IMG/VR virus record: IMGVR_UViG_3300042691_028354
Location: 22,493-86,492 of that record
DNA length: 64,000 nt
From: a virus
Reading direction: 5' to 3' (one strand)
The notes beneath the pieces are model-generated. The model saw nothing but the letters and a program-made list of their open reading frames with translations. It searched no databases and had not been told where the DNA came from. Numbering within the stretch: position 1 is the first letter of the stretch; each line of letters opens with the position of its first letter. A program made the translations under genes and the position numbers. Of this stretch, positions 1 to 21,004 are shown piece after piece.

Positions 1-1848
1 TGCGAATGTCTCTTGCGTGATCGGCTTGATCATGTAGGTGGACGTGTCGAATGACATCTCTACCTTGAACTTCGGCTGACCTTCCGCGTACACGACGGGG
101 ATGTGATCTTGATCAAGGTCCTTGAAGGGGACGGTTGAATCAAAGTCCATGTCGCTAGCGACAACGTACTTTCCGTCAGTCGTCTTGAGGACGACGACAT
201 CTTCACCAGTGTTGTTGCTGTAGGTCATCGCGTAGGTTGCAGCACTTCCTTCATCGCCGAAGGAAGAGATCTGCCAATCGGGAGCGGGCGGCGGACCCAG
301 TTCAGTCGGAAGGGGATTTGGGATCGCAGGCTTGTTCTCGTCCTCCTTGAGGGCGAGTTTCGGCTTCGGCTTCGTCTTTGTTTTGGACTTCGAGATAATG
401 AGGTCCGAGAGGCCAGCATCTTCAATGATCTGATGACGTCGCTTGGGCTGTACGAAGTTGAGGCGCTCGTAAGGGTTGACGTCCTCTTCGCCATCATTGG
501 GAACCCACATCGCAAGGAAGTTCTTGCGCTCAGCGCCGAGCTGACCGATCAGGGCCTTGTCGGGGTTGTCCTTGAGTGACTCATCGGTGATGTGCTTGTC
601 GATCGCAGCAAGGAACTCATCGGCGCTGTCGGTATCGGGTGCGTTCTTGCCGAGGCGCTTGTTCCAGAAAGACAGGTTGCGCTCGCGTTGCTCTTGGAAG
701 GCATCAAGGAAGTCCTTGGCCTTGCCCTCTCCGAGCTCGTTGACCATGTTTTGGTTGATCTCGTCTAGGACAAACTTGCCTGTCTTGGACTTGGAAAGAT
801 TCTTGTCCACCAACACGGGAGGCTTGATGGCCTCGGCGGCAGCAAGGTCAGCCTCGATCTGGTTTGTAACGGTGAGATCGTCAATGATCTCGTTGGGGGT
901 GAGATCTGCACTGACTATGAGGTCTTGGACGACGCCATCGGGGCCGACGGCAAACAGCGCTTGTTCATCACCGGCGAGATAACGCTCGGCGTCGACAACA
1001 CGGAGCTTGCCGGTGCTGGTCTGCACAATGAAGCGCATCTCGCCAGTGTCTTGTGCCGACTCAGACGCTTTGCCTTTGGCATTGGCTTCGTTCGTGAAGA
1101 GGTTGCCGATCTGCTTGCCAGGCTTTTTCTTACCTGACTTGCCAGCATTGACCTGATTGACGTTGGCGGCATTGTCAATGTTGGCCTCGGCGGCTTTGGC
1201 CGGCCCGGTTGGCTTCTTCTCAGGCTTCTTGGAAGCAGTGCTTGATTCGCCACTCGGCTTCTTTGAGGTCTTCTTCTTCTTGAACTTCTTCGGGGTCGGC
1301 AGATCACCCTCGGTCAGTCCGACCTTGGGGGTCTTGTCCTTTTCGTCTTCTTCCTTACCGCCTGGGATCAGGTTGGCAATGCCCTCGATTGCACCACCGA
1401 GTTTGCGGCGACGCTCGAGGCGACGTTCTTTGCGCTTCTCGCGACCGGCTGCTCGGCGTTCGGTGGCGCGATCAGCAAGGTAGTCAACAATCTGACCACC
1501 ACGTTCAAGGGCCTGTCCCGCCTGATAGCGAACAAGGCCCGTTCCACCGGCGGCTCGGCGTTCCTCGGATGCGGCAAGAGCGCTGTCGAACTGGTCGATT
1601 CGCTCACCGAGCTTGGCGAGTGTGGCGCGGGCGGCACCGAGGTTGCAGGTGGTGCCCATTGCGTTGGTCCACTTGCCAGCCCGAGTCGTCCCCGGCGGGC
1701 ATCGGAACTTGCGGATCCGCTTACCCAGTCGATCGTAGTCAACCTGTTCCACGATGACGTTGCCGGCCTTGACGTCCATGGCAATGGAACTAACCATCTT
1801 CGCCGACGTGTAGCGCAGCGCGGCATACTCGGTTTGCGCTCTGTTCAT
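1..1848 (-). CDS. Large head-module protein, 3' end runs off the window (>616 aa; absent from ORF track)
   Basis: Read by hand: ATG at 1848 (MNRAQTEYAALRYTSAKMVSSIAMDVKAGNV...), frame open to position 1; contains KFRCPPGTTRAGKWTNAMGTTC and a Lys-rich linker. Confidence 0.85.
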   Translation of the reverse strand, partial: MNRAQTEYAALRYTSAKMVSSIAMDVKAGNVIVEQVDYDRLGKRIRKFRCPPGTTRAGKWTNAMGTTCNLGAARATLAKLGERIDQFDSALAASEERRAAGGTGLVRYQAGQALERGGQIVDYLADRATERRAAGREKRKERRLERRRKLGGAIEGIANLIPGGKEEDEKDKTPKVGLTEGDLPTPKKFKKKKTSKKPSGESSTASKKPEKKPTGPAKAAEANIDNAANVNQVNAGKSGKKKPGKQIGNLFTNEANAKGKASESAQDTGEMRFIVQTSTGKLRVVDAERYLAGDEQALFAVGPDGVVQDLIVSADLTPNEIIDDLTVTNQIEADLAAAEAIKPPVLVDKNLSKSKTGKFVLDEINQNMVNELGEGKAKDFLDAFQEQRERNLSFWNKRLGKNAPDTDSADEFLAAIDKHITDESLKDNPDKALIGQLGAERKNFLAMWVPNDGEEDVNPYERLNFVQPKRRHQIIEDAGLSDLIISKSKTKTKPKPKLALKEDENKPAIPNPLPTELGPPPAPDWQISSFGDEGSAATYAMTYSNNTGEDVVVLKTTDGKYVVASDMDFDSTVPFKDLDQDHIPVVYAEGQPKFKVEMSFDTSTYMIKPITQETFA

Positions 1849-1906
1849 TAGGACACTCGCGAGAGGGAGAAATGGGTAAGACTCAGTATGACCTTACCAA
1901 ACTCCA

Positions 1907-3241
1907 CTAACCTTCGGCCGGAGTGTCCTCATCAATGATGACTTCCCACGGGGTGGTGTTCTTTGGCCGAGCTGGGGCAGTGGGGGCCAAGAACATTTGG
2001 TAGATCCACCGGCGAACCATGCGACTGGCACCCTTCTCGCTGCGGATCTCGATCATCTCCATCGCTTGCTTCGCGTCAGAGTCGCCAACGGCCGGAATGA
2101 GCTCAAGTTTGTCTGGGTTCTTCTCGACCAACTGGCTCAGTGCCTCACCCATGTCTGGTCCTTCAAGGCCCTTGCGAATGCCCTTGAGGTTGGCGGGGAG
2201 ATCGTTGAGAAACTCGGGCGTGGCCTTCGGCTTGCGATTGACCTGAATCGAGGATCCATCGGCAAAGGAGAATGCGACGCCGTATGCACCAGTTCCAAGA
2301 AGATCAAGACCACTGGTGCCAAAGTCGTCGGGCTTGGCTGTACCAATGACGAACACTCCGTCAGTGATGTCGTCGTTGCCCCGAACCTTCGCAAGACGGG
2401 AAATGTCGACGGTGGGGTCAATGCTTGAACCGTCGCGTCGAACAAGACGCACCGAACCGTGAGGCTTCTTGCCAATCAACGGAACCGTCGTGCTCACAGC
2501 ACTGTCACGCGCCACTCGGCTGGCTTTGCCGACCGGGTCGACGCCGCGCTTGATGTCGACGACATTTCCTGAAATCCCTCGGCCTCGGATCAATCGCCCG
2601 CTGCGACCCTGTCCGACGTCATCGATTCCCGGCATGCCATCTGCGCTGTCGCCTCGACGAAGGACGCGATTGGCTGCTGAGCGTGCTGCGCTTGCTGCTG
2701 AATCGGCCACATCGAACAGTTGGATACCGCAGGTGCCGAGACCTGAGTCAGTGAACTGACCACCGTTCTCGAACCCTGGCGGACAACGGAAAAGTCGGCG
2801 TGGTCCACCAATGCGATCCCGACCTCCGCCCGGAGTAAGCGTCTCGTAAACGGTGGACCGGATGGGGGAGCGAATGTCACTCGCGTCACCGGGAATCAGC
2901 ATCGTGCCGATGGCCTGAAGCCCTTGACCGAGTTTCCCCCTTGAGCGGACGGATCCAACTTTCTCATCAAGGTGAACGCGCTGAACAAGGGACTTCTTGC
3001 CGGACGAGTTTTGGGAGGGCATGGCGCAGGTGCTACCGAGAGCGTCAGTGAAGTCGCCAGCACCAGGGGTGCCTGGCGGACACTTGAACTTGCCGCCATC
3101 GACAATCACTCCGCGACTGGCCGCGAGACGTTGGGTAATGGAGCCACCCGAGAGATCCCCGACTTTGGCTCCCGATTCACCGATTGATGGACCAAGGATT
3201 CCCTTGACCATCACCTCGTAGAACGGATAGTTGTCCAACAT
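1907..3241 (-). CDS. Head-module protein with two CPPG motifs (~444 aa)
   Basis: ORF track 1907..3403; more likely start ATG 3241 (MLDNYPFYEVMVK), preceded by GAGG and clear of the upstream gene. Confidence 0.8.
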   Translation of the reverse strand: MLDNYPFYEVMVKGILGPSIGESGAKVGDLSGGSITQRLAASRGVIVDGGKFKCPPGTPGAGDFTDALGSTCAMPSQNSSGKKSLVQRVHLDEKVGSVRSRGKLGQGLQAIGTMLIPGDASDIRSPIRSTVYETLTPGGGRDRIGGPRRLFRCPPGFENGGQFTDSGLGTCGIQLFDVADSAASAARSAANRVLRRGDSADGMPGIDDVGQGRSGRLIRGRGISGNVVDIKRGVDPVGKASRVARDSAVSTTVPLIGKKPHGSVRLVRRDGSSIDPTVDISRLAKVRGNDDITDGVFVIGTAKPDDFGTSGLDLLGTGAYGVAFSFADGSSIQVNRKPKATPEFLNDLPANLKGIRKGLEGPDMGEALSQLVEKNPDKLELIPAVGDSDAKQAMEMIEIRSEKGASRMVRRWIYQMFLAPTAPARPKNTTPWEVIIDEDTPAEG

Positions 3242-3275
3242 CTCCGTCACCTCGGCGGGAAGGGCGACGGTCTGC

Positions 3276-5219
3276 TCAGTTGAGCAGATCGCGCATGTCT
3301 TCTTCGGCGGCAAGCATCTCGAACTCCATGATGGAGGCAACGAAGTTGTCAGCAGACTTCTCCATTGGCTCACCACTGGTCGCTTCCTCGGGAACTTCGT
3401 CACCCCATGCTTCGGGGATCATGTTCTCAAGGCCGAGCTCTTCGGCGCGCTTGACGATGTGGGCCTTGGCGGCCTTCTTGTCTTTCGCTCGACCGTAGGC
3501 CTGAATGGCGTTCTTGAGGTCTTCCTCATTGGCGATCGGGTATGAGCCGTCAGGCAATGCTTCACCAGACTCAGCCATGGCGTCGCGCTCCTCATCGGAG
3601 TACATCGCCTTGACCTGAAGGTCGTAGGTGTCGTCGTCCTTGGCTTCAGCGTCAGCCCAGGTGTATTCGTCGTAACCCAGCACGTTGCCGGACGGGGAGA
3701 CGAATACGTCATAGGACTTGCCGTCAAGGCCTTCGATCTCGACCGAGTAGGCCTCGGATCCTTCAAAGGTGGATACGACAACGGAAGCGGCTTTGCCATC
3801 GACGACAGCAAGGGCCTTTTCCTTGGCGGTGTCGGGATCGACTACCTCAGAATCGGAGAGAACCTCTTCGGCGGGAATGCGGAACCATCCGTCAATCTCA
3901 CCCTTGCCGGTGATGTAGGCCTCAACGTAATCGCCGGTCTTGCGCTCAACGTGGAGAACGAACAGGTCCTGATCCGATGAGTAGCCCGAGTTGAGGACCT
4001 TGCCGTTGAGGACGTCTTCTGCGATGCCCTCGATGGCAAGAAGGTCATACTGACCTTCAGTCACTCCGCAGCGGCCTGGGCAGTCGCCACAAGGCGTGGC
4101 GGCGTTGGCGCTCTTGACTTCACGGGAGGCGGCGCAGACGAACAGGTCGTCTGTCATGTCGTCGGCCTTCATGCCCATGGTGCCCATGCGCTTGCCACGG
4201 TTGCGACGGATCTCGGCCGGGTCGGCACCCATCATCTTCTCTTCGTCCATCTCGTCCATGGACTCGTCATCGACCATGTCGTCGTCGCCCATGGGGACCA
4301 TTGCGCCACCCTTGATGGTGACAGCCATGGCGCCACACTTGCCGCAGACCTTGTCGCCGGCCTTGTAGCCACATCCTTCGGTCAGTCCCTTGGCGCAGGC
4401 AACAACATCGCCTTCATCAGAGATCTTGACGATGGCCTTCTCGTCCATTTCAGTTACATCCACGACTGGCTCCTTCACTTGCATGGCATCAGTCATGCAC
4501 GCACTGGTGTTCTTACAGGCAGCACATGGAGTCATGCGCTTCATGCCGGATAGACCGCAATGATACTTCGCTGCTGTGTCAGTGGGGTTCATGCTGCTAT
4601 TCATACCCTTTCCTTCGTGGCGACAGCCACAATCGGTCTCATCAGCGGCGAAAGGATGAGTCTTTACACCGCCCATCTCGTCGGTTCCTTCGTGTTCCCA
4701 GTTCTTGTCTTCTCGGAGGTATGAGACGAAGTCGGCTTCCTTCTCGCAGAAGCCCTTGAGTTCGCCGATTGCCTCTTCCATGTCAAGTTCGTCATCATCC
4801 ATTTCGGTGATGGCGATGTTGAGTCCCTTCCCAGGGGTCAGTCGGTCCAAGCGATTGTTGAACTCAGAGTCGGACCAAAGTGATCCGCGAGTGACGCCAC
4901 GCAACTTGCGGCGACAGTTCTTCATCCCTGGGTGATGACAGCCCTCATTGGGCCAAAGACCGGTCGTCTCATGGTGGAGCCATGCGCAGAGGTTGTCGAG
5001 TGGGTAGAGCTCTGGGTGGTCGGCCAGGATCACACGGCAACGACGGAAGCCACCGGGCTTACGCATGATCGGTCGCCAGTAGCGGAGCAACTTCTCAAGA
5101 TTGCCTCGACGGGGGCCGTAGCCGCGCAAGATGTCACCCGTGATGCGCTCCTGTGGAATCGCATCGGGCGGAACCGGAGCCTTGATCTCCGTATTGAGCT
5201 GGGGTGCCTTGTCGGCCAT
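3276..5219 (-). CDS. Mosaic head-module protein: Cys/His-rich N-domain, Cys-rich segments, PepSY-like domain(s), C-terminal DUF6582-like domain
   Basis: LLRYW...FRRC...LCAWLHHETTGLWP; DPDTAKEKALAVVDG...YSVEIEGLDGKSYDVFVSPSGNVLG (PepSY-like); ALPDGSYPIANEEDLKNAIQAYGR; AGGA RBS. Confidence 0.75.
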   Translation of the reverse strand: MADKAPQLNTEIKAPVPPDAIPQERITGDILRGYGPRRGNLEKLLRYWRPIMRKPGGFRRCRVILADHPELYPLDNLCAWLHHETTGLWPNEGCHHPGMKNCRRKLRGVTRGSLWSDSEFNNRLDRLTPGKGLNIAITEMDDDELDMEEAIGELKGFCEKEADFVSYLREDKNWEHEGTDEMGGVKTHPFAADETDCGCRHEGKGMNSSMNPTDTAAKYHCGLSGMKRMTPCAACKNTSACMTDAMQVKEPVVDVTEMDEKAIVKISDEGDVVACAKGLTEGCGYKAGDKVCGKCGAMAVTIKGGAMVPMGDDDMVDDESMDEMDEEKMMGADPAEIRRNRGKRMGTMGMKADDMTDDLFVCAASREVKSANAATPCGDCPGRCGVTEGQYDLLAIEGIAEDVLNGKVLNSGYSSDQDLFVLHVERKTGDYVEAYITGKGEIDGWFRIPAEEVLSDSEVVDPDTAKEKALAVVDGKAASVVVSTFEGSEAYSVEIEGLDGKSYDVFVSPSGNVLGYDEYTWADAEAKDDDTYDLQVKAMYSDEERDAMAESGEALPDGSYPIANEEDLKNAIQAYGRAKDKKAAKAHIVKRAEELGLENMIPEAWGDEVPEEATSGEPMEKSADNFVASIMEFEMLAAEEDMRDLLN

Positions 5220-5258: not shown

Positions 5259-8200
5259 TCACGGGTCAAGCAGACGGCCGCGCTCGTCGGTGATTCCACG
5301 AATGACGTCCATCTCACGCTTGGAGTACTCGGACTCAAACACGCTCTGAACTTCCTCGAAGAGGTCCATCATTCGCTCGTAGACTTCATCGCCTCCATCT
5401 GGAAGCTCATCGGCCCGAAATGCCGCACTCTCCAAGAGGTCGTAGTACTCCTTGGGATCAATGCTGCCCCCACCCAGTCGATCAAGGGCGTCCACCTGGA
5501 CTTCAAAGAGTCTCAACTTGGTGGCGTCGTCTACGCCCGAAGCATCCTGAGCATCGACAAGCTTGTCAATCAGCTCAACAACCTTCTTCTCTCGGGTAAA
5601 GGGCTTCAACTCGAAGGCTTCATCAAGTTGTGACCGAATGTCATCAACGGGGTTGGCCTTGGACGACTTGCGAGACGGTCCACCCATGTCGTCGACATAG
5701 CTGTCGTAGTTCGCCAAGAGTGCCAGTAGGCGACCCTTCATGTTCTGGTACTTGCCCGTATCAAGGAGGTCGCGAATCTCGGACGGACTGAGGTCGTCAA
5801 GCACGCTGGCGTCGATACTCATCTGCTCAAGCAGATTCGCAACATCATCACGAGCCTGAGCGACCGCGCCGACGTACTCCTCGAAGGCGTCCTCGTCGTC
5901 TTCTTCCACCTCATTGGCAGCCCTCTCGACTGCGTAGAAGTCAAGCGGACCTTCAGCGTTGAGATCTACGTCGTAGTCGTCAAAGAGGTCGGCTGTTTCA
6001 GTCTTGAGGTCGGCCCATTCTTGGTCCACATCGTCGCGAAGTTCGGGCTTGACGAAGTTGGAGGTGATCAAATCGGACAAACCCTTGTTGGTGTCCTTGG
6101 GAAGGAGGCCGTCAGGAGTGTCTCGATAACTGTCCACCAAGGGTTGGATCTGGAACGGGTAGTCAACTGCTCCGCCAACCCCCGAAAGGTTCCCCTTCAA
6201 GACGGTGCCGTCGCCGCCACCGAGCAGCGCACTGAGTTCATCTGCGACATCAGTGGTCGGTGGGTCAACGAAGTAAGTCGTTAGTTCCGGCTTGTCAAGG
6301 TTCTTGCCATCGCGACGAAGCACGAGAACGTCAAGGTTCCTAGCGCCTCGAGTGGCGGTTACGGCCACAGTTTGTTTATCGCCCGACATGTAGAGACCGT
6401 TGCCGACATTGATGCGCGAGCGTTCCCTGGCGCGCTCCATGTCAATGATCTCGTTTATGTTCTTGCGTCCCTTGTCTCCATCCTGAGCAAACAGGTCAGC
6501 AAGAGCCGTGTTCACCTTGCCCCGGAGCCTTGAGACTGACTGCTTGTCGTTGGGGTACGGGCTGAACAGTTCCGGCGCCCATGCCTCGTCTTCTGGTGTC
6601 AGTTGCTCAAGGATGCCTGGGAGTTGGTTGTCAATACGATCACGCAGTGTGTCCGTGATGCGACTCCGTGTCGCTGAATCAATGCCTGCTGCCTTCATAG
6701 CATCATCGTATGAATCAATGTCGAAATCCGCAAGGTCTGATAGGCGATCGAATGCTTCATCGTCCGACATGTCGCCATAGAAGGTGCGACCCTGATCGCT
6801 AGAGCGCATCGAGAATGGCTCAGTCCATGGCTCGCCCGGGTTGAAGACACCTTTGTCGCCACCCATGGCACGGAACTGCATGGAGCCGCCGACGTCAATG
6901 CGATGGATCTTGTCGTCATCGTCAAGGATGACGTTGTCGCCGACAAGGCCGAAGACATCCCAACTCGAGGCAAGAGCGTCGTAGGCGAAGCCGTCTCGAG
7001 CCTGCTCTTGAAGGGCTTCGGTCATTCCGTCGTCACCGATCGGTTTGCCAAGCCCGCCATCTTTGGTCTGCACGGCCTTCTTGGCGATGTACCACTTGCC
7101 GTTGCTCTCATAGATGCCCGTCTCGTCGGTAGCGAGACCGGCAGTCTTGTAGAAGAGGTGGGCAGACATCTCGTTCTGAGCATGAGCCTCGGACTTCGCC
7201 GGCTTGACAAGGTATCGCTGACCCTTGTCGTCGGTGTACCAGCGACCACCCTGAGACCCAAGAGGACCCGAGCCTCGCTCCATTGCCTTGAACTCGTCGG
7301 CCGACGGAAGGCCGTTCAGGAGCTTCCCGGCGCGACCAGTCGGTCGCTCGGGGGGTTCTGGGGTATCACCCGCTGGCGGCTTCGGGGGCTTCGGGGGCGT
7401 GGGTGGTTTATTGCTGCCACCTCCGCCAGGTTTGAGCTTTGAGGGTTTCCGGTCATACCAACCCATTTGACGCTTGACGGATTCGGGGAGATCGGATCCA
7501 ATCGGCTTCCGAGTTGGGGCTACACGATCAAGATCTGCCGCAGACGGGAGCTTCAATGCGGGCTTGCCGGAATCGCTTGGCTTGCTCGTCACATTGCGCA
7601 TGGCAGTGGTTCCCTCTTGAACCACGCCATCACCGTCAGCATCTCGGGCCTTGGGATTGACAGCCTGCTGAATCAACTTTCGAGTGCCGCGACCCTTACC
7701 GCCGCCCGCGCTGGAGTTGCTCAGTTTGCGCAACTTTCCCAGCGCGGACTTACGGTCAAAAGGGACGGCATCACCGTCCTCGGTGCCGTAAAGGTCAAGA
7801 GACTTGACTCGCAGTTCATCGCCATGGCCGTCGACAAGCGTCGCAACGGCGTCAATCAGTTCCTGGCTGTCTGCCTTGATCGCGATCCACGATCCGTCTG
7901 CGGTGTCCAGTGACACTTCGGCGCCGTGGTATTCGGCGATGGAATCAAGGAGCGACTTCAGTCCGAACATGGCGTCCGGTGTGGTTCCGAGGACAAGGTA
8001 ATCATCACCCTTGCGCTCAAGACCGGTGGAAGCATCTCCCTCATTGAGGATCTCGGTGAGCAGATTGATCGCATCGCGAAGGCGCTCCATGTTGCGCCCG
8101 GCGACGGTTCGGCCGACCTTGACGTCGAGCTGTTCCATGATGTCGTCGTAAGCGACCTTCTTGCCCCGGCGACGTCGTTCGTTTTGGCGAGCGGCAAGCA

Positions 8201-9986
8201 TGTTGCGCTGGTTCTGGTACTTGCGAAGTGCTTGGACTCGCTTGCGGTGCTCTGTCGGAACCTCACGCATAGCGTTGGGGTCATCGAACGAGCCGACGGG
8301 GTAGCGACCACCATCTCTGAGTTCAACAAAGCCCGAGCCGTCTTCTTCAATCCGAGCATGGGTGTCGTACTTGTCAATGCGGTAGCGGCGAGAGCTGTTG
8401 TCAATCTCGCCACGAGGTTTGACGGTTGGCCGTTTAGGCTTCCGCAGTAGGTAGTTTCTGTCCCTTTGCGGCTTTTTGAATGGGGGCTTTGTCGGCTTCT
8501 TGGGAGCAGCAGTCTCGCGATCGGTGCCATCAAAGATGACGCCGTCTCCATCGCGATCGACTTCGTCAACTACAGAGCTGCCGCCGACCCTGCCAGCGAT
8601 CTGCTTGACGCCGCACATGCCCTTGCCGCCACATCCGCATCCACAGTCCTTGTCGCCGGCCATGCCTGCGCCTGGACCGGGAACGTCGGGGGCTTCGGAA
8701 CCGTATTCTTCATCGTCCTCATCCTCCACGGGGATGTAGACAGTCTCGGCTCGGACTTCTTCGGCCGAACCGACCATGATGAGGCCGCGTTCGGAATGCC
8801 ACGATGCCCGCATTGTCATGGGTTCGCCGTCGTGCATGTGGTCGAACACCACTGTGTTACGACTCATGTCGCGAATCTTGACGGGACCGCCGTACTCCTC
8901 GGCAATGGCGTCGGCAAGGTTTTCGGCCATTGAGACCTGTGGGTCCACTACAAACCCATCGCCGCCTTCGCCGTAGTCTTCGTCGTCCTCTTCGTAGTCC
9001 TCGTCGTAGTCTTTGTCGTCGCCTTCGATTGACACTGCGTATTTGTCGCCATAGCGATCGGCGATGAACTCCATGAGGCCTTCCGCCATCTCCCGCACGG
9101 CATCGTCGCCCTTCTCATTCTTCGCTTCGAGCTTGGCGATTGCCTCGCGAATCACGTCCTTCATGTAGCCCTCGCCGCGGGATCCGACGGCCAGCCACTT
9201 CATTTGAGCGACGACGCCCGGAAGGCGGAAGTCCTGCTTGTGTCGGGCGACCCACGCTTCGCGGAGCTCTAGTGCTGCGACCTCGGTGTCGGTCGTTGCT
9301 TTGCCGCCGCGCTTGGCGATCGGTAGGAGCTTGGCGTACTGGTCGTTTCCTCGGATGTTCCCACCCTTGGCCCAGATCGTCGGATACTTCTCCTTGACCA
9401 TTTGGGCGAACTCGGGGTCGAACAGGTTCCACTCGCTCTTGCGGAACGAATCCACCTGATTCTCTTCGTCCTGCATTTCGCTCTTGATCGAGATCGTCGC
9501 TGTGAGCTGATTCGCCCCATGAAGCACCGGGCTGACTTCGTAGAGTTCGAGTTCCTTCAGTAGGTTCGCCTGGCGCTGGGACGAGTAGATCGAGTCGAGG
9601 GTCTTGTACCCGATTGACCATTCCTGCTCCTCCCCAAAGAACAAGATGTCGTTGAATGCTTCACGGCCACGCTCTGACCGGAGGTTGAACTGAACCTTGG
9701 CGAAGAGGCCACCTACACCGGCCTTCTTCATCTTGGCGGGCAGGCGAGGATCGCTCGCCGGCACCTCGTACATGTCGATGACCTTGCCGATGGGCTTGTT
9801 CCAGTCATGGCCCCAGACGACACGAGGCTTGCGGCGCTTCAGGCTTGACGTGAAGGCACCCGGCATGACGATGTCGCCGACCGAGTCCTTGTTGCCCACG
9901 GCAGCCACGAAGCACTCAACGATGCCCATGGCCTCGTCGATGGAAAGTTGGCCACTCATGGCCTTGAACTGGAGTGAATCACCCAT
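5259..9986 (-). CDS. HK97-family prohead protease fused to a long multidomain extension including a HipA/PI3-PI4-kinase-like domain (~1575 aa)
   Basis: N-term VGNKDSVGDIVMPGAF, WGHDWNKPIG, EWSIGY, LYEVSPVLHGAN (Peptidase S78); internal RYLVKP..NE..WDVFGLVGDN..RIDVGG; start ATG 9986 after GAGG (track uses TTG 10016). Confidence 0.9.
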   Translation of the reverse strand: MGDSLQFKAMSGQLSIDEAMGIVECFVAAVGNKDSVGDIVMPGAFTSSLKRRKPRVVWGHDWNKPIGKVIDMYEVPASDPRLPAKMKKAGVGGLFAKVQFNLRSERGREAFNDILFFGEEQEWSIGYKTLDSIYSSQRQANLLKELELYEVSPVLHGANQLTATISIKSEMQDEENQVDSFRKSEWNLFDPEFAQMVKEKYPTIWAKGGNIRGNDQYAKLLPIAKRGGKATTDTEVAALELREAWVARHKQDFRLPGVVAQMKWLAVGSRGEGYMKDVIREAIAKLEAKNEKGDDAVREMAEGLMEFIADRYGDKYAVSIEGDDKDYDEDYEEDDEDYGEGGDGFVVDPQVSMAENLADAIAEEYGGPVKIRDMSRNTVVFDHMHDGEPMTMRASWHSERGLIMVGSAEEVRAETVYIPVEDEDDEEYGSEAPDVPGPGAGMAGDKDCGCGCGGKGMCGVKQIAGRVGGSSVVDEVDRDGDGVIFDGTDRETAAPKKPTKPPFKKPQRDRNYLLRKPKRPTVKPRGEIDNSSRRYRIDKYDTHARIEEDGSGFVELRDGGRYPVGSFDDPNAMREVPTEHRKRVQALRKYQNQRNMLAARQNERRRRGKKVAYDDIMEQLDVKVGRTVAGRNMERLRDAINLLTEILNEGDASTGLERKGDDYLVLGTTPDAMFGLKSLLDSIAEYHGAEVSLDTADGSWIAIKADSQELIDAVATLVDGHGDELRVKSLDLYGTEDGDAVPFDRKSALGKLRKLSNSSAGGGKGRGTRKLIQQAVNPKARDADGDGVVQEGTTAMRNVTSKPSDSGKPALKLPSAADLDRVAPTRKPIGSDLPESVKRQMGWYDRKPSKLKPGGGGSNKPPTPPKPPKPPAGDTPEPPERPTGRAGKLLNGLPSADEFKAMERGSGPLGSQGGRWYTDDKGQRYLVKPAKSEAHAQNEMSAHLFYKTAGLATDETGIYESNGKWYIAKKAVQTKDGGLGKPIGDDGMTEALQEQARDGFAYDALASSWDVFGLVGDNVILDDDDKIHRIDVGGSMQFRAMGGDKGVFNPGEPWTEPFSMRSSDQGRTFYGDMSDDEAFDRLSDLADFDIDSYDDAMKAAGIDSATRSRITDTLRDRIDNQLPGILEQLTPEDEAWAPELFSPYPNDKQSVSRLRGKVNTALADLFAQDGDKGRKNINEIIDMERARERSRINVGNGLYMSGDKQTVAVTATRGARNLDVLVLRRDGKNLDKPELTTYFVDPPTTDVADELSALLGGGDGTVLKGNLSGVGGAVDYPFQIQPLVDSYRDTPDGLLPKDTNKGLSDLITSNFVKPELRDDVDQEWADLKTETADLFDDYDVDLNAEGPLDFYAVERAANEVEEDDEDAFEEYVGAVAQARDDVANLLEQMSIDASVLDDLSPSEIRDLLDTGKYQNMKGRLLALLANYDSYVDDMGGPSRKSSKANPVDDIRSQLDEAFELKPFTREKKVVELIDKLVDAQDASGVDDATKLRLFEVQVDALDRLGGGSIDPKEYYDLLESAAFRADELPDGGDEVYERMMDLFEEVQSVFESEYSKREMDVIRGITDERGRLLDP

Positions 9987-10032
9987 ACCGAAGGACCTCG
10001 CTTTACTTGAGGTCAAAGAGTAGTAGGCGATG

Positions 10033-10095: not shown

Positions 10096-12378
10096 TTAGG
10101 ATCGGTATCGCAAGCGACAGCGACACGCAAGACTCAATGACGCTGGTGCCATCGGGTCTCCCGGGAAGCGCAGTGGCATCCCGTTCACCTTGAACGACTG
10201 GCCCATTTGCACGGTCGTCCCATCAAGTGAACGGTGGGCGGGTCTCACCCGATCATCGCGACGGGTTACCCATGTCTTTTCAAGGAGGCCCGAGCGTTGA
10301 CCGGCAAGATAGAGGCCACCATTGAAGGCGCTTTGTCCCTCGATCTGAGAGATTCGGTTGCGGCGACCACCAAGGAGTTCCACGAACACCGCAGCCAATC
10401 CGGCAAGAAGGAGGGCATGGCCCGAGTCAACGCCATCGCTTGCCGCAAGAGTCTTGGCGGCGAAGACGGCAGCGGCAATCTTCTCCTGTGTGGTTGAGTT
10501 TGCCTGCTGGACCCGTTGGGCTTGCTGGTCGGCAAGGCCGGTGAACTCCTCATCGCGAGCGATTTCCGTATTTGTCTTCTCTCCTACGAGAGCGGACGCC
10601 TCGGCCATGATGCCGGCGAGTACGGGAGTTACGTCTTCAGCAGTTTGGCGATTCCAGCCAGGGAGGTCGAAGAGTTGTTCTGTTGTTAGACGACCTTCGG
10701 CGATGGCCTTGCGGGCCTTTGACCCACGGGCCTTCTCCATTACGACGCGCTGCTGGCGCTCATAGAGGCGTTCAAGGGTGCGATCAAGAATCTGCTCCCA
10801 CCGTTCGGTAGCCGTGTCGGCCTTGGTCTCGAAGTCTTCGTCAAAGATCGCCTGTTTCAGCGTCTTTAGTTGTGGTGCATCCGCAGGGGGTCGGCGAGCA
10901 CCGTCTAGGGATGGTGCGGTCGGGTCATTTTCCTGGGCTGCGGGCGCCATGTCCGCCTCATCGACGATGGTGACACCCTCCGGCAATGGCGGTTCAGCCG
11001 AGCCTGCGTCCGGCGGAGCCGGAGCCTCGGCCGGCGCTTCGGGTGCGACCTCGGAGACGCCCTCGGGGAGTGGCTGCTCAGCCGGAGGAGCCCCAGGGTC
11101 GCCCGGCATGGCACCCATGGCTTGCTGCTGCGTGGCGGGATCGACGTAGGGCATCTCGCGTTCGGTGTTACCGATCGGTGCGAGGTTCGGGTTGGCCAGC
11201 ATGGAGTCGGCAAGGTCGGATTCAACTGGATCTCGGCCGGTCCCTGCTCGGTACTCGTTGGCAGTGATCAGGCCGTTGTTGAACTCCTGAAGGAGATACT
11301 GCTCACGCTCCTGCTTAGCGAGAATGAGAATCGGGACATTGGAGTTGTCAAACTCAAACCAAAGTTTGGGGTCAAGGGGATCAAAGCCTCGAGCCAGCAT
11401 CTCAAGATGCGGCTGCATGGTCTCCATCCAAAACACCCGAAGTTCCTCGGCGGCATTTGAGAAGGTCCGTCCACTGGCATTGCCGATGACTGATTCCGGC
11501 ACGCCGAAGGCGGCAAGGATCTCTTCCTTGGTGAGTCGACGCATCTCCACGTAGGCGGCGTCACGAGGATTCGAGCCGGTGTCTACGTAGTCGGCGCCCT
11601 CCTCGGAAGCGATAACGGTGGTGCCACCGGCACGGCCGATGTTGCCTCGGAAGCGGCTTCGGAGTTCTTCTTTGTCCTCTTCGTCCATGTCGCCACGAAC
11701 AACCAGAAGGCCACCGGGGCGGCCGTCGTTGACAAGGAAGTTGCGGTTGTAGAACTTGGCCAGATTCTCGATCTCGATGGCCACGCCGGCAGATTCCATG
11801 GGGGTCATGGACAGGTAGGGATCAAGTGGGTGTGGGTGGCGGAACCAAAGGACCTGCTCGGGCTTGAGGATCGTGCGCTGTCCACTCGGCATCAGCACCT
11901 CGTAGCCAGAGACGAACTTGCGCGGGTCGGGGATCGGACTGGTGTGTTGCGGGGGAAGCAGATGGAGGGCAGTTGGCCTGCCATCACGACCGGAGATGAT
12001 CTCCACGAACGCGCCGCGAGTACTCAGCAACATTTGGGCTGAGAGTCGATGGCGGAAGATGAAACTGTTCTCGCCTGGGTTGGACGCCATGTTGAATAGC
12101 TTGAGAATGCTGGCGTCATCGACGATGGGGCCGACGGGGGAGTTGTTGTTGCGTGCTCTGACTGGGAGGCGAGCCTGATTGCCGGCGATGGCGTCCACGG
12201 CACGGAACAGCCATGTGACGCGCTTCATGCCATCGCGATAGGCCCGTTCGATGTCCCACCCGTCGTGGTAGCCGCGATCTATCGCCAGGGACGGATTCGT
12301 GGAGACGGGCGCGCCATAAGGGATGGCCTTTTGGCCGCCATTGCCAATCCCTTTGTTGTTCGGCGTGTTCCAGCCCAT
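10096..12378 (-). CDS. Portal protein (HK97-like) with C-terminal MuF/gp7-like head morphogenesis domain
   Basis: Portal motifs (AVDAIAGNQARLP, NFLVNDGRPGG, EILAAFGVP, GLITANEYR); C-term KTWVTRRDDRVRPAH...LRFPGDP...CRC; ATG overlaps upstream TGA. Confidence 0.92.
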   Translation of the reverse strand: MGWNTPNNKGIGNGGQKAIPYGAPVSTNPSLAIDRGYHDGWDIERAYRDGMKRVTWLFRAVDAIAGNQARLPVRARNNNSPVGPIVDDASILKLFNMASNPGENSFIFRHRLSAQMLLSTRGAFVEIISGRDGRPTALHLLPPQHTSPIPDPRKFVSGYEVLMPSGQRTILKPEQVLWFRHPHPLDPYLSMTPMESAGVAIEIENLAKFYNRNFLVNDGRPGGLLVVRGDMDEEDKEELRSRFRGNIGRAGGTTVIASEEGADYVDTGSNPRDAAYVEMRRLTKEEILAAFGVPESVIGNASGRTFSNAAEELRVFWMETMQPHLEMLARGFDPLDPKLWFEFDNSNVPILILAKQEREQYLLQEFNNGLITANEYRAGTGRDPVESDLADSMLANPNLAPIGNTEREMPYVDPATQQQAMGAMPGDPGAPPAEQPLPEGVSEVAPEAPAEAPAPPDAGSAEPPLPEGVTIVDEADMAPAAQENDPTAPSLDGARRPPADAPQLKTLKQAIFDEDFETKADTATERWEQILDRTLERLYERQQRVVMEKARGSKARKAIAEGRLTTEQLFDLPGWNRQTAEDVTPVLAGIMAEASALVGEKTNTEIARDEEFTGLADQQAQRVQQANSTTQEKIAAAVFAAKTLAASDGVDSGHALLLAGLAAVFVELLGGRRNRISQIEGQSAFNGGLYLAGQRSGLLEKTWVTRRDDRVRPAHRSLDGTTVQMGQSFKVNGMPLRFPGDPMAPASLSLACRCRLRYRS

Positions 12379-12572
12379 CACTCAGCCCCAAGTAGGTAAC
12401 CGACGAATCCACATGTCACGCCTAGCGTGATCCACCCCGCAGGTGGGTAGATCATGGCAACCCCGACGCTAGTAGTAATGATAAATGTCAGCATGAGGGC
12501 GTAGGCCGCAACCGATCGTAAAGTGATGCTAGCGAACAGCATTGCGCGAAGGTTTGAGAGCAGTTTGGTCAT
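12378..12572 (-). CDS. Small membrane protein upstream of portal
   Basis: 64 aa, two hydrophobic segments, TGATG-coupled to portal; position common in HK97-like head modules. Confidence 0.75.
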   Translation of the reverse strand: MTKLLSNLRAMLFASITLRSVAAYALMLTFIITTSVGVAMIYPPAGWITLGVTCGFVGYLLGAE

Positions 12573-12638: not shown

Positions 12639-13952
12639 ATGAGTGAACCAAACTGGCTTGAGGTGCTTGAGTACCTAAAGCCGAAGACACCGCCGTACTG
12701 TCCTGAGCCTCCATCGGTTCAGCAGTTGGTCTTTCTTCGCACGAATGCGATCGAGGGACTGTTCGGCGGAGCGGCCGGAGGTGGCAAGTCAAGCGCACTG
12801 CTCATGGCTGCGTTGCAGTACGTGGAGGTCCCCGGCTACTCGGCGCTGTTGTTTCGTCGCACGCTCGCCGACCTCACTCTGCCCGGCGCACTCATGGACC
12901 GATTCAAGGACTGGATCGGCCCGCACGACGAGATCGGCTGGAACGCCAACACCAACACGGCGACCTTCCCTTCTGGGGCGCGCATCAGTTTCGGATACCT
13001 CAACAACAAAGAGGACTACCTCCGCTACAAGGGCACGGAAGTCCAGTTTGTCGGAATGGACGAAGTCACCGAGATACGCGAGACCGACTACCGGTACCTG
13101 TTCTCTCGTTTGCGCCGACCCTCAAGTGGCCCACTCAGTCGTGTGCCGTTGCGGATGCGGGCGGCCTCGAACCCCGCTCCAAACTGGGTGCGCCAGCGCT
13201 TCATCATTGAAGGGCCATCTAAGGGCCGGATCTTTGTTCCGTCCAAACTGACCGATAATCCTGGCGTCGACGCCGAGTCCTATCGCCGAGCGCTCGCCGA
13301 ACTTGATCCGGTGGAGCGCAAGCGCCTTGAGATGGGCGACTGGTGGGCTACGAGTCTTGGCTCCATGTTCAATCGCGAGGACGTGGTGGTCATTGACCCC
13401 ATGGACGTGCCGGCGAACGTGGACCGGACAACTCGGGTCGTGCGCTTTTGGGACATGGCGGCAACCGAGCCGTCTGCGTCCAACCCCGATCCCGACTGGA
13501 CTGTTGGCACACTGATGATGTTCCACGAGGGCATCGCCTACGTACTTGACGTACGTCGGGTACGGGTGCGCTCCGAGCGGGTTGAAGCCCTTATCGCCGA
13601 AACGGCCGCAGATGACGGCCCACTGGTGTCGGTCCGCATGGAGCAGGAGCCGGGTTCTTCGGGCAAGGCTCTGATTGACCAGTACGCCCGCTACGTGCTT
13701 CCTGGCTTTGACGTTCAGGGCATCCGAGCAACCGGTGACAAGGTCAGTCGAGCTCGCCCATTTGCCTCAGCAATGGCGAACGGCAACGTGCGCGTGGTGG
13801 CTGCCAGTTGGCTCAGCGATTGGCTTGACGAGTTCACATCGTTCCCGGAGTCATCGTTCCATGACGATCAGGTTGACTCCGCCGTTGGTGCGTTCACGTT
13901 CTTGACAGGACTTGGTATGCCTCAGAGAAAACGCGCTACGCTTATCGTCTGA
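12639..13952 (+). CDS. terL: Terminase large subunit
   Basis: Walker A GGAAGGGKS, Walker B VGMDE, ASNP motif, nuclease RFWDMA...DWTVG...HDDQVD. Confidence 0.95.
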   Translation: MSEPNWLEVLEYLKPKTPPYCPEPPSVQQLVFLRTNAIEGLFGGAAGGGKSSALLMAALQYVEVPGYSALLFRRTLADLTLPGALMDRFKDWIGPHDEIGWNANTNTATFPSGARISFGYLNNKEDYLRYKGTEVQFVGMDEVTEIRETDYRYLFSRLRRPSSGPLSRVPLRMRAASNPAPNWVRQRFIIEGPSKGRIFVPSKLTDNPGVDAESYRRALAELDPVERKRLEMGDWWATSLGSMFNREDVVVIDPMDVPANVDRTTRVVRFWDMAATEPSASNPDPDWTVGTLMMFHEGIAYVLDVRRVRVRSERVEALIAETAADDGPLVSVRMEQEPGSSGKALIDQYARYVLPGFDVQGIRATGDKVSRARPFASAMANGNVRVVAASWLSDWLDEFTSFPESSFHDDQVDSAVGAFTFLTGLGMPQRKRATLIV

Positions 13953-16494: not shown

Positions 16495-17586
16495 ATGCGG
16501 CGCCAAACGAAGCGCCAAGTGATCAAGGTCGGCGTCGCAACGACTGACTGGTCAGGTTCCATAACCGACTCACGTGGCTGGCCGGCCCTCGGAGGCGCTG
16601 GTTGGGTTCGCTTTGGTCAACAGAAGCGTCACCTCAAGAACCATGTCGTCATCGGCAACCTCGCCGTGGTCGGTGGTCGCTTGGCCGTCTACACCCCCGA
16701 TCAACGCCTTCATGCCGACTGTGACGTTGTAGTCCTTCAGCGATACATGGACGACTGGGTTCCCGAAGCAGTGGCCCGTGCCGTAGCCGGCGGCCAGATT
16801 GTGATCAACGATGTCGATGACTGGTTCTGGGGAATCCACCCCAAGAACCAAGCAGCCAAACTTGTTGATCCCGAACTGAACAAGACCTCCAACATTGATC
16901 ACTACCGAGACACACTCAGTGCATCGACTGTCGTGACGTGCTCCACGCCGTTCTTGGCTGAACGCATTGGCGAGTTCGGCATTGAAACCAAAGTAATCCG
17001 AAACGGCGTTGCTACAACAATGTTTCGCGAGCGGCTCCACAAGACTGGACGCCCGATCATTGGATGGACCGGCTCAACAGCGCATCGCTCCGGCGACCTT
17101 GGCGTCTTTGCCAAAGTTGTTCCATTGATTGAAGGCAACTCGCGCTTTCATCACACCGGCTCGTATGAAAAGTACCCAGCATTCGCCAAGGAAATCGGCG
17201 TGCTGCCGGCGCGAGTGTCCACACTTCCGATGCTTGCCCCAGAGGACTATCCACTCGGATTGGCCTTCGACGTCGGTATCGTCCCATTGACTGACATCGA
17301 GTTCAACAAGGCCAAGAGCTACATCAAGGGTCTTGAATACGCAGCAGCGTCGATCCCGTTCATCGCATCTCCATCGCCCGAGTACGTGCATCTCCATAAA
17401 GAGACTGGCATCGGGCGGATTGCAGAAACCCCGCAAGAGTGGGCTGCACATCTCAACGAACTGCGAGACCCGGAACTGCGCACAAAGGAAGCCCGTCGAT
17501 CACGGATGGCGGTTCGCGACAACGGCCTTGATGCCCTGGCTGCTGCGCGCTCATGGGATTCACTGTTTTGGGAGTTACACCAGTGA
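16495..17586 (+). CDS. GT-B fold (GT4-like) glycosyltransferase
   Basis: DVVVLQR, DVDD, IGWTGS..H..D, DVGIVPL...FNKAKSYIKGLEYAAASIPFIAS. Confidence 0.85.
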   Translation: MRRQTKRQVIKVGVATTDWSGSITDSRGWPALGGAGWVRFGQQKRHLKNHVVIGNLAVVGGRLAVYTPDQRLHADCDVVVLQRYMDDWVPEAVARAVAGGQIVINDVDDWFWGIHPKNQAAKLVDPELNKTSNIDHYRDTLSASTVVTCSTPFLAERIGEFGIETKVIRNGVATTMFRERLHKTGRPIIGWTGSTAHRSGDLGVFAKVVPLIEGNSRFHHTGSYEKYPAFAKEIGVLPARVSTLPMLAPEDYPLGLAFDVGIVPLTDIEFNKAKSYIKGLEYAAASIPFIASPSPEYVHLHKETGIGRIAETPQEWAAHLNELRDPELRTKEARRSRMAVRDNGLDALAAARSWDSLFWELHQ

Positions 17587-17885
17587 GGCATCGTTCCAAG
17601 AAGAAAGAAGCCGAGTACCGCCTGCGTCGCCCCTTGGTCGAGCGAATGCTCACCGAGCAGCCGTGGTGCCAGGCATGTCCAGTCTTTGCTGAACATGACG
17701 AGAAGGTCACTTACGTTCGCAACCGGTCCTGCGATGTACACGAACTGAAGCGCCGCAGCCAGGGTGGCTCGATCCTTGATGAGGACAACTGCATCACGGT
17801 GTGTCGGCCGTGTCACCGCCGGATCGGCAACTACCCACAACTTGCTGTTGATCTTGGTTTGGCCCGTTGGTCCTGGGAGGACTAG
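17583..17885 (+). CDS. HNH endonuclease
   Basis: CQAC...DVHELKRRSQGG...NCITVCRPCH; GTG 17583 overlaps upstream TGA. Confidence 0.85.
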   Translation: MRHRSKKKEAEYRLRRPLVERMLTEQPWCQACPVFAEHDEKVTYVRNRSCDVHELKRRSQGGSILDEDNCITVCRPCHRRIGNYPQLAVDLGLARWSWED

Positions 17886-18499
17886 GAGTTTTGGGTGTCC
17901 ATGGGGGAGTACGAACCAACTCGTTGGCTTAGACGCGCTGAGTGATTCCACTGAGAGGCCAGCGCTGCGCCGTCATCGGTGAGGTGTCCGCCCCCGTTGA
18001 GATAGCCGTCGGTGCGACTCGCAACCACCAGCGCATCGGCCACGTTGATGAGCTTGACGGCCAGGCCGCGGCGTCGGAACTCGTTGGCAACATAGATCTG
18101 TTCAATCGTCGCATCCGAACGACGCCACTTGATGGCGGCTACCTGATCGGCTGCGGTCTTGCCGGTCAGACGGAACTGGTCAGCGTCAAGCACTGTTCCG
18201 TCGGTGAAACGCTTGTCGGCAAATGCCATCAGAGCGGCGACGCCACCGATCATGTCGTTGTAGTTGATCAGTAGATACCAAAGACTTGGTGCCTTGGGCA
18301 GGTGGGCGTGGTCAACGTGAACCGTCAGGTGCTGACCATTGAGTGACACTCGGGAGAACGGATCCGCCCCCGTGGGTCTGACGTTGGACTCAATCGTGGA
18401 TGGGTGGGGATGCTCGTCGGTCGCAAACGACTCGACTGCATTCCATCCGTCCATGAGTGAATCGGAACGCCAAAACCACAGGGTCGGGTAGTCCGGCAT
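17882..18499 (-). CDS. Putative GNAT-family acetyltransferase
   Basis: IEQIYVANEFRRRGLA acetyl-CoA-binding motif A. Confidence 0.65.
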   Translation of the reverse strand: MPDYPTLWFWRSDSLMDGWNAVESFATDEHPHPSTIESNVRPTGADPFSRVSLNGQHLTVHVDHAHLPKAPSLWYLLINYNDMIGGVAALMAFADKRFTDGTVLDADQFRLTGKTAADQVAAIKWRRSDATIEQIYVANEFRRRGLAVKLINVADALVVASRTDGYLNGGGHLTDDGAALASQWNHSARLSQRVGSYSPMDTQNS

Positions 18500-19008
18500 T
18501 AGACGTTCGGGCTTGACCCGGTGTAAGAGATGGCGATTGTCACCTTTGCTGCGGTGAGGTCGTAGGTCTCGAAGTCGCCACCGTCACTGCTCACGTAGAG
18601 CATGAGGTACTCATCGGGATCCATCTGTGCCACGTTGCCGACGTAGTCCGTGGTTGACCACCACGAGGCTTCTTCGACTGGGACTGAAACATTGCTGGTC
18701 CAGTCGCCCTGTCCGCAGTTGACGGTTGGCTTCTCGTTGTCACCGAAGAACGGGACGATGTCTTCGTAGTAGGCGGGGTCGTCGACGCCAACTGACTTGC
18801 GACCCTTCATGGCCCCAAGTTCCCAAATGCGGTCCCAGTCGGTTGCGTCGGGGCCTTCTCCGCGCATTTCACCGTTCACGGTGAACTTGACGCCGGTGAC
18901 GATGACTTTCTGAGGAAATGAGACAAGGCAGTAGTAGTCACCACTGCCGTTCTCGTCAACGCCGTCAATGTCGACACTGAGAATGGAATCTGGAATGATG
19001 CCTGACAT
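18499..19008 (-). CDS. Hypothetical acidic, beta-rich protein
   Basis: Track ORF 18499..19044; likely start ATG 19008 (MSGIIP); TAATG-coupled to the GNAT gene. Confidence 0.7.
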   Translation of the reverse strand: MSGIIPDSILSVDIDGVDENGSGDYYCLVSFPQKVIVTGVKFTVNGEMRGEGPDATDWDRIWELGAMKGRKSVGVDDPAYYEDIVPFFGDNEKPTVNCGQGDWTSNVSVPVEEASWWSTTDYVGNVAQMDPDEYLMLYVSSDGGDFETYDLTAAKVTIAISYTGSSPNV

Positions 19009-19107
19009 GGTCTCTCTTTCTGTTGGGAAGAACCAACTGACCAAGATAGAACTTGAATCATCCGTCTACCCGTAAGTTGTGAGTGTCAAACAATGTAGCC
19101 TGACGGT

Positions 19108-19626: not shown

Positions 19627-19647
19627 CGACGGTCTACAGTCCGTCAC

Positions 19648-20010
19648 ATGGCAATGACCAACGGAGTTCAACGGTCACGTCCGATCTCGCAGGTAGATGT
19701 CGAAGAAGAAATCATTCGACTGCTGAATCTTCTTGAGGCGGAGACCGAAGCGTTTGAGGCCCTGGCCGAAGACGGTGCAAAGAAGGAAGCGAAGTACAAG
19801 GCGGAATGGGCAAAGGCCTACCTCTCGGCCACCGGCTCCATCAAAGAGCGCGAAGCGTGGTCCGACTACCAAATGGAAGACAAGGCGCTTGACTTCAAGA
19901 TCGCCGAAGGACTCGTGAAGGCAAAGCGGGAGAAGTTGACTTCGTTGAGGACCTCCATAGATGCCCTGCGCACGTTGAACGCCAACGTCCGTAGTCAGGT
20001 GATGCCGTGA
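19648..20010 (+). CDS. Helical hypothetical protein (weak UvsY-like character)
   Basis: 120-aa coiled-coil ORF; function not confidently recognised. Confidence 0.7.
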   Translation: MAMTNGVQRSRPISQVDVEEEIIRLLNLLEAETEAFEALAEDGAKKEAKYKAEWAKAYLSATGSIKEREAWSDYQMEDKALDFKIAEGLVKAKREKLTSLRTSIDALRTLNANVRSQVMP

Positions 20011-20801: not shown

Positions 20802-20809
20802 GAGTCATC

Positions 20810-20959: not shown

Positions 20960-21004
20960 CAATCGGTCATACTGAGTTCTCTATCTAGTCCTAGTGAGTC
21001 AAGC

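Follow-up and report, generated by a model that had tools for sequence, protein, structure and literature searches.

The 64,000-nucleotide stretch of viral DNA analysed here, referred to as the window, spans bases 22493-86492 of the 86,492-base IMG/VR virus record IMGVR_UViG_3300042691_028354, a record with a completeness rating of 58%. An open reading frame (ORF) of 1585 amino acids (aa) on its minus strand (5259..10016) encodes a protein made up of a prohead protease, a conserved core, linkers, a kinase-like domain and a variable acidic tail. The kinase-like domain (aa 894-1150; 6567..7337, minus strand), a compact unit of about 230-250 aa recognised by family search, hhalign and residue mapping, likely has a HipA-like kinase fold, judging from sequence profiles. 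We read it as a new, unnamed family in the HipA-like (HipA_C / HipA_2) part of the protein-kinase-like superfamily, closest to HipA_2. The residues that it retains suggest that it is probably an active phosphotransferase. The best explanation of the fusion, and a reasonably plausible one, is that the protease carries a HipA-like kinase that would be co-packaged, released, ejected and able to act on a host protein early in infection.

Motifs and conservation of the kinase-like domain

An earlier note, made from the letters of the window and a list of its open reading frames, had placed a HipA/PI3-PI4-kinase-like domain at 6620-7275 and named its motifs. The bounds given here are slightly wider, and a script search located every one of those motifs in the 1585-aa frame. 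In order along the protein, all on the minus strand, they are the Gly-rich loop GPLGSQGG (aa 917-924; 7245..7268), YLVKP (aa 935-939; 7200..7214), QNEM (aa 947-950; 7167..7178), the catalytic-loop-like DALASSWDVFGLVGDN (aa 1013-1028; 6933..6980) and RIDVGG (aa 1039-1044; 6885..6902), the last two also placed by alignment. The Pro/Lys-rich stretch PPKPPKPP, at aa 874-881, lies N-terminal to them. K938 in YLVKP (7203..7205) is the candidate ATP-binding lysine and E949 in QNEM (7170..7172) the candidate helix glutamate. The catalytic-loop-like motif is laid out as D1013...S1018-W-D1020...D1027-N1028, and D1041 of RIDVGG would, by analogy, occupy the metal-binding, DFG-equivalent position.

The family to which this domain belongs is large, and its motifs recur far more often than chance would allow. 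With aa 894-1150 as query, phmmer run over 1.84 billion cluster representatives returned 3554 at E<=1e-3 and 1212 at E<=1e-10. The best 150 matches are mostly proteins of 600-7000 aa that hold the domain at varying internal positions. Conservation was read from an alignment to the family hidden Markov model (HMM) with 180 rows, namely the query and 179 full-length copies from 148 proteins. Within the Gly-rich loop, G920 is kept in 172 copies and S921 in 162; K938 is kept in 174 and E949 in 175. The catalytic-loop-like motif retains D1013 in 178 copies, W1019 in 163, D1020 in 172, G1023 in 177, D1027 in 154 and N1028 in 177. In the last motif R1039 is found in 176, D or E at position 1041 in 173, G1043 in 169 and G1044 in 174. 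Between 86 and 99% of the copies keep each of these elements: Gly-Ser of the loop, Lys, Glu, the D-x4-N-x-D...N loop and the (D/E)-x-G-G motif. K, E, D, N and D/E are retained together in 169 of the 179 homolog copies. The residues that the earlier note took to be catalytic are thus conserved in homologs. The window copy has all motif residues, its sole departure being Ser at position 1018, which is mostly Asn in the other copies. A further block, conserved and specific to the family (R1049, G1052, K1055 and E1066, in the pattern FRAxGGxK...E), follows the IDxG motif.

Relationship to HipA-type kinases

A search for HipA homologs gave only E. coli-type proteins that were 73-100% identical, and diverse comparison sets were taken from Actinomycetota instead: 30 HipA_2 (PF20613) and 30 HipA_C (PF07804) sequences, all from genomes of this one phylum. 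Each set was compared with the 180-copy family alignment by local hhalign. Against HipA_2 the probability is 81-89% and P is 1.2e-5 to 2.4e-6, over an alignment of 124-125 columns that begins at the Gly-rich loop, takes in the Lys, the Glu and the D...N-x-D...N loop, and ends at the IDxG motif. For HipA_C the probability is 92-93% and P is 2.9e-7 to 5.2e-7. For scale, HipA_2 and HipA_C compared with each other, using the same alignments, reach only P 2.2e-4.

Three controls bear on these values. In 60 column shuffles for each target the highest scores were 23.2 and 21.2 (minimum P 0.015 and 0.031), where the real alignments score 43 and 53; reversed alignments scored 13; and a 27-sequence alignment of APH (PF01636), likewise drawn from Actinomycetota genomes, matched the family at P 0.048. 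The shuffle, reversal and APH controls therefore indicate a signal specific to the HipA-like branch rather than a generic resemblance to kinases.

Residue mapping leads to the same branch. G920, S921, K938, E949, D1013, position 1018, D1020, N1028, D1041 and G1043 fall on columns that are invariant in 30/30 HipA_2 sequences, where the ten residues read G, S, K, E, D, N, D, N, D and G; the column of D1041 is the Asp of the HipA_2 'IDHG' motif. G920, K938, E949 and D1020 align with G153, K181, E203 and D309 of E. coli HipA, of which we take K181 to be the ATP-binding lysine and D309 the catalytic aspartate. The Gly-rich loop of HipA is formed by residues 151-156, as described in PMC10627512. The domain thus resembles the HipA family in the order of its motifs (Gly-rich loop, Lys, Glu, D-x4-N-x-D...N and (I/V)-D-x-G), in its significant profile-profile similarity and in the ten matched residues.

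Differences from the HipA family, which includes E. coli HipA in PF07804 and the uncharacterised PF20613, are equally evident. No Pfam model reaches its threshold here. When 52 members were searched against Pfam at E<=1, HipA_C appeared in 13 (best E 4.6e-5), HipA_2 in 4 (0.0032) and APH in 1, and the E-values suggest that the HipA_C and HipA_2 matches are sub-threshold; in P0011 the HipA_C match lies inside the kinase-like domain at 23.4 bits, under a cut-off of 30.5. The loop WDVxGLxxDN stands in place of D-x-H-x-K-N in E. coli HipA, and the FRAxGGxK...E block is an addition of this family. Moreover, the module is found in phage virion-associated proteins rather than as a toxin-antitoxin gene. 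The HipA N-terminal domain (PF13657) is absent, PF04586 being the sole Pfam family on the 1585-aa protein, and a HipB or HipS partner is likewise lacking, the genes alongside being that of the portal and large ORFs of the head module.

The earlier assignment to a HipA/PI3-PI4-kinase-like fold therefore holds in one half, as a distant relationship to HipA (P 1e-5 to 5e-7, against 0.048 for APH), and fails in the other. PI3/PI4 kinases have the catalytic loop motif DRHxxN. Membership in that group was rejected, since the loop of the window copy reads WDVFGLVGDN instead and PF00454 (PI3/PI4 kinase) is unmatched at E<=10, as is LepB_N (PF18640). Language-model neighbours that bear a family name are PI3_PI4_kinase, LepB_N and HipA_2, at 0.92-0.93; the first two, at 0.92 and sharing 152-153 features, are graded as a lead only.

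Several points weigh against an active HipA-like kinase. The confident part of the HipA_C alignment is limited to the N-lobe (51-63 columns), and its C-lobe part is of low confidence, with N1028 unaligned and D1041 on a non-Asp position. Residues 873-1212 gave zero matches in Pfam and NCBIfam at E<=10, the 340-aa query gave 0 hits among PDB sequences by phmmer at E<=10, and a 16-member profile searched against PDB found no kinase, only ribosomal protein L9 at E 0.17-0.46. The fold is read from sequence profiles throughout. The catalytic loop itself is atypical: WDVxGLxxDN has 8 residues from D to N and is without His or Arg. Finally, 26 of the 148 proteins carry the domain in 2-5 tandem copies, an arrangement unusual for a kinase. 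Searches that sit beside these are those with PF07804 and PF20613 across the whole record, which did not hit the protease-borne domain, and an hhalign comparison of family alignment A1 with the single E. coli HipA sequence, which gave a probability of 0.4% though the equivalent helix was aligned.

The tandem arrays, which reach five copies per protein, resemble repeats of binding modules, and the domain could on that account be a non-catalytic element for binding, scaffolding or packing of the capsid interior, its motifs being structural or the remnant of a pseudokinase. P0044 has three tandem copies, and P0051 has three of which two are degenerate. The 3416-aa P0009, in contrast, has five tandem copies and keeps the catalytic-type residues in all five. 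Pseudoenzymes normally lose such residues, yet K, E, D, N and D persist together in the 169 of 179 copies counted above, at positions that coincide with the invariant, active-site-type positions of HipA_2. Because these polar residues are so well retained, a purely structural role is unlikely, and we consider a non-catalytic module very improbable.

The carrier protein and its long homologs

The N-terminus of the ORF is, by sequence, an HK97-type prohead protease. The head maturation serine protease domain occupies aa ~10-212 (9381..9989, minus strand); Peptidase_S78 (PF04586) matches aa 29-182 with E 1.8e-12 and 48.2 bits against a cut-off of 21, and phrog_80 matches the N-terminus at E 7.8e-29. 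TIGR01543 of NCBIfam scores 47.3 bits there, under its equivalog cut-off of 59, and the whole protein searched against PHROGs at E<=0.1 yielded protease families only. With PF04586 and phrog_80 at one end and aa 894-1150 further along the same open frame, the claim that the kinase-like domain is fused inside a prohead-protease protein is borne out.

Whether homologous proteases exchange this C-terminal region was a check that the earlier note had proposed beforehand. A search with aa 1-215, which hold the protease, was limited to proteins 871-2774 aa long and found 323 at E<=1e-5, of which 120 were listed and analysed. These 120 listed homologs are 66-100% identical in the protease domain, and their similarity implies that proteases of this phage clade are as a rule long. 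By the family HMM, the kinase-like domain is present in 6 of them (the window protein, P0003, P0004, P0006, P0008 and P0398); the other 114 are without it, which is the result that the note's check called for.

Homolog coverage along the protein draws the same boundary. BLASTP coverage of P0001 comes from 90-120 of the 120 listed homologs over aa 1-200, from 42-74 over aa 201-300, 351-450 and 601-750, from 38 over aa 301-350, from 18 over aa 451-500 and from 4 over aa 501-600. It is 6 over aa 901-1200, 5 over aa 1201-1250 and 1-3 in the remainder to aa 1585. Because only 6 of 120 carry it, the domain is optional on an otherwise conserved protease protein and behaves as swappable cargo.

A quick tree built from the protease domain requires 2 state changes to account for the six carriers; the mean after shuffling is 5.9, and 0 of 500 shuffles were as low. 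The starred branches of the tree are compatible with a single origin of the kinase-like domain, and the rows nearest the window's pair (P0339-P0342, ~920-944 aa) do not have it. Identity to the five other carriers is 50-92% in 50-aa windows over aa 901-1100 and 38-80% over aa 1101-1150, whereas the flanking linkers are 12-52% identical among the six, with many insertions and deletions. This conservation amid divergent flanks marks the domain as a well-bounded module under purifying selection. The linker ahead of it, rich in Pro, Lys and Gly (aa ~857-893; 7338..7448, minus strand), is recognised from its sequence and is likewise poorly conserved, with many insertions and deletions among the six carriers.

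A second kind of passenger was seen in the same set. Six long proteases (P0004, P0006, P0008, P0346, P0348 and P0398) have a Ferritin-like domain (PF00210, E down to 4e-16) placed between the protease and the later parts, and four of the six also bear the kinase-like domain. By analogy, a fusion of ferritin to an HK97-type protease recalls the ferritin-like cargo of encapsulins; it also recalls the DPS and catalase genes that Benler et al. report in phages (PMC8008677).

The remaining parts of the protein are less distinctive. A core common to many of the long homologs, as judged by BLASTP coverage among the 120, extends over aa ~213-800 (7617..9380, minus strand); these ~600 aa match no Pfam family and might be a scaffold-like or capsid-targeting part of the unusually long proteases. 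The core includes a Cys-Gly cluster, CGCGCGG, at aa 458-464 (window 8625-8645, minus strand). Two Asp-rich motifs resembling D-x-D-G-D-G lie in linkers at aa ~495-510 and ~805-815 (window ~8480-8520 and ~7560-7600, minus strand). The C-terminal region (aa 1151-1585; 5262..6566, minus strand), acidic and variable according to the homolog coverage, gave chance-level matches only in Pfam. A conserved scaffold role for these 435 aa was rejected, the region being common to only 1-6 of the 120 homologs.

Relatives of the domain in other phage proteins

Searching a phage collection by tblastn placed the domain in 20 records, and its position was confirmed separately in four proteins. One is a 3290-aa protein of Actinomycetia phage DSL-LC01, placed between the portal and the capsid maturation protease. 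The others are gp66 of Gordonia phage Phendrix (1480 aa), immediately after the portal; gp117 of Pseudomonas phage Dolphis (1222 aa), annotated as an ADP-ribosyltransferase; and a 2253-aa protein of an Escherichia phage. Pseudomonas phage Jeremy and Morganella phage Mecenats66, both cultured, also carry the family, and P0162 is a stand-alone homolog of 216 aa. Multidomain head-module proteins, with domains that recur fused to MuF, portal or other head proteins, are a recurrent setting. Precomputed labels on 70 stand-alone or mid-size relatives (124-874 aa) place Phage_Mu_F on 10 and ADPrib_exo_Tox on 11, and a kinase label on 0 of the 70. Among the 52 members searched against Pfam, the co-resident families are ADPrib_exo_Tox (10), ART (6), NUDIX (4), Zeta_toxin (3), Phage_Mu_F (2), Phage_min_cap2 (2) and a 2'-5' RNA ligase-like domain (1).

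The closest genome-borne relative, 52% identical, is found near the end of a 100-kb contig of an Acidimicrobiaceae metagenome-assembled genome (MAG) (L011, G001:C1:5574-6389). The genome search places one TGA and one TAG within the match, whereas a stop-to-stop frame of 988 aa holds the whole domain.

This company of NAD- and nucleotide-centred domains (ADPrib_exo_Tox, ART, NUDIX, zeta, 2'-5' RNA ligase-like) suggests another possibility, that a kinase-type fold serves a different chemistry from that of a protein Ser/Thr kinase: phosphorylation of a small molecule, nucleotide or lipid, or an AMPylation-like transfer, perhaps acting on NAD/ADP-ribose or nucleotide signals. The lipid-kinase families PI3_PI4_kinase and LepB_N among the language-model neighbours, the atypical catalytic loop and the family-specific block of R1049, G1052, K1055 and E1066 would be consistent with it. 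However, significant profile similarity leads only to HipA_C and HipA_2, and the characterised members of HipA_C are protein kinases; PF00454 and LepB_N stayed unmatched, and co-residence in polyvalent proteins does not imply a common substrate. A different chemistry is accordingly judged rather unlikely. The lipid substrate that the earlier note thought conceivable from actinobacterial phosphatidylinositol found no supporting evidence, the hints to a host being only a Gordonia-like TerL and the Acidimicrobiaceae MAG relative.

Packaging and delivery

The occurrence of the same domain in large phage proteins thought to be capsid-borne argues that it is probably an enzyme that is packaged and modifies the host. 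Since prohead proteases become part of the procapsid, the fusion would co-package the kinase-like domain: as the protease assembles, the domain would be taken in alongside. Cleavage of the flanking linkers by the protease could then release it, ejection with the DNA would deliver it, and a host protein might be phosphorylated early in infection, for takeover or counter-defence. The analogy is to packaged ADP-ribosyltransferases (ARTs) such as T4 Alt and, as regards the chemistry, to the action of HipA on aminoacyl-tRNA synthetases. Packaging of the domain is fairly probable; its ejection and early action are a more tentative suggestion, for which the expectation falls somewhat short of even.

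Other evidence points away from injection. HK97-type proteases are usually thought to self-digest and leave the capsid, and a passenger domain might be destroyed. The protease ORF, furthermore, is one of the late head operon's genes. Benler et al. 2021 (PMC8008677) propose a late, non-injected role for a kinase of the HipA family whose gene sits between those for portal and capsid, on the grounds that it is a late gene for which early action is unlikely. The paper on the carrier phage Mecenats66 reports, in its available text, no mass spectrometry. The first three of these points favour the main rival explanation, in which an active HipA-like kinase works late, in the producing cell or procapsid, and is degraded with the protease rather than injected; its targets could be phage assembly proteins, host envelope or defence proteins, or it could act in superinfection exclusion. 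Set against it is the repeated fusion of the domain to MuF, minor capsid protein 2 and ART, together with its presence in giant portal-adjacent proteins, since the literature reads such polyvalent or MuF-fused proteins as head-packaged, injected effectors (PMC5512222, PMC9503650, PMC5576092, as far as their available texts go). Its presence in only 6 of the 120 listed proteases also speaks against a core role in assembly. A late role is thus considered unlikely, and the protease-carried, co-packaged kinase is kept as the preferred explanation.

Comparison with known systems

The polyvalent and MuF-fused effectors described by Iyer et al. 2017 (PMC5512222), Jamet et al. 2017 (PMC5576092) and Iyer et al. 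2022 (PMC9503650) share with the present proteins a large multidomain build, a head-module context and co-occurrence with ART, Nudix and zeta-toxin domains. The available text of PMC5512222 describes a kinase family of truncated Ser/Thr/Tyr type that has a His...Asp insert and occurs mainly in Verrucomicrobia-Chlamydia and Bacteroidetes; it differs from the present domain in both its hallmarks and its phyletic range. The word 'HipA' occurs 0 times in the main text of that paper, and the supplements of the three papers may list the domain under another name. In contrast to Iyer et al. 2017, the present fusion has the protease at its N-terminus.

The gut-phage kinase of Gratiaviridae (Benler et al. 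2021, PMC8008677) is similar in being a kinase domain with a distant relationship to HipA, encoded between portal and major capsid genes. It was compared by description rather than by sequence, and the available text of that paper reports no protease fusion; its authors prefer a late role of the immunity type, played jointly with an ATPase and a glycosyltransferase. T4 Alt and the T7 gp0.7 kinase offer a functional likeness, an enzyme that is available at or soon after DNA entry and modifies host proteins (background in PMC5512222). Alt, however, is an ADP-ribosyltransferase, and gp0.7 is a kinase of another family that is expressed early and not packaged.

Polyvalent virion effectors, effectors fused to a capsid-processing peptidase and a HipA-family kinase in Gratiaviridae head modules are thus already in print, so far as the available texts of these papers show. 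A search of the literature, in main texts only, found no paper on the present domain family, on its link to HipA or on a fusion of a prohead protease with a HipA-like domain.

Genome setting

The record's own gene call for the frame at 5259-10016 is a protein of 1575 aa (P0338). Its upstream neighbour (10096..12381, minus strand) encodes a portal protein with a head-morphogenesis, MuF-like C-terminal part (phrog_2662, E 3.5e-95; phrog_2468, E 9.5e-26), and the large terminase gene (TerL) lies at 12639-13952; the protease ORF comes after the portal gene and faces the terminase. An HK97-type capsid gene (PF05065, E 8e-46; G000:C1:13359-14192) follows in the same minus-strand operon, ~8 kb past the window start and after several large mosaic ORFs. 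Portal, terminase and HK97-fold capsid genes are therefore all present around the protease, as expected of a head module. The presence of a tail sheath identifies the phage as a myovirus. TerL is 45% identical to that of Gordonia phages and, with the Acidimicrobiaceae relative, provides the only hints to a host; a megablast search of the ORF against 50,697 phage records gave zero matches.

Three more large ORFs follow the protease gene on the minus strand (window 1-5219). They encode 647 aa, 498 aa and at least 616 aa, the last running off the window, and none has a useful PHROG match. The capsid gene comes only ~8 kb past the window start, so that ~14 kb coding for large, unannotated proteins separates it from the protease gene. 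On the plus strand (window 16495-22506), a glycosyltransferase gene (phrog_7162, E 4e-31) and a PAPS-reductase-like gene (phrog_2302, E 2.3e-69) are located between packaging and neck genes.

A second, different kinase-like domain is encoded in the record at G000:C1:19574-19999 (minus strand, locus L008), ~2.5 kb before the window start. It sits in a giant ORF of ~2169 aa within the same head operon and has a weak HipA_2 match (E 0.0064, 11.6 bits). That it belongs to the same family as the protease-borne domain was ruled out, the family HMM having no match to it at E<=0.01. The phage may thus carry two unrelated HipA-like domains in its head-module proteins.

Significance

Studies of phage protein kinases cover only a few cases. 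According to Benler et al. 2021 (PMC8008677), the two characterised examples are the T7-type and 933W kinases, and the CotH-type and HipA-type kinase domains of phages are predictions. The present domain adds a concrete, testable candidate for an early host-modifying activity, and it presents the prohead protease as an N-terminal carrier for optional cargo. Its family is abundant and unannotated, and the proteins that contain it are strong candidates for injected effectors; once the family had a name, thousands of giant phage proteins now labelled 'hypothetical' would be better annotated.

A broader proposal, put forward as speculation that we regard as doubtful, is that these domains constitute a very large family of HipA-like kinases delivered by the capsid, comprising 3500 or more clusters at 50% identity, for which Pfam, NCBIfam and PHROG have no model. 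In tailed phages of many hosts they would enter the head by three or more routes, namely fusion to MuF, giant proteins next to the portal and fusion to the prohead protease. Once injected, they would phosphorylate host targets as soon as infection begins, and dosage or multiple specificities would come from arrays that reach five intact copies. If this is true, packaged protein phosphorylation would take its place beside packaged ADP-ribosylation as a general strategy of takeover or counter-defence.

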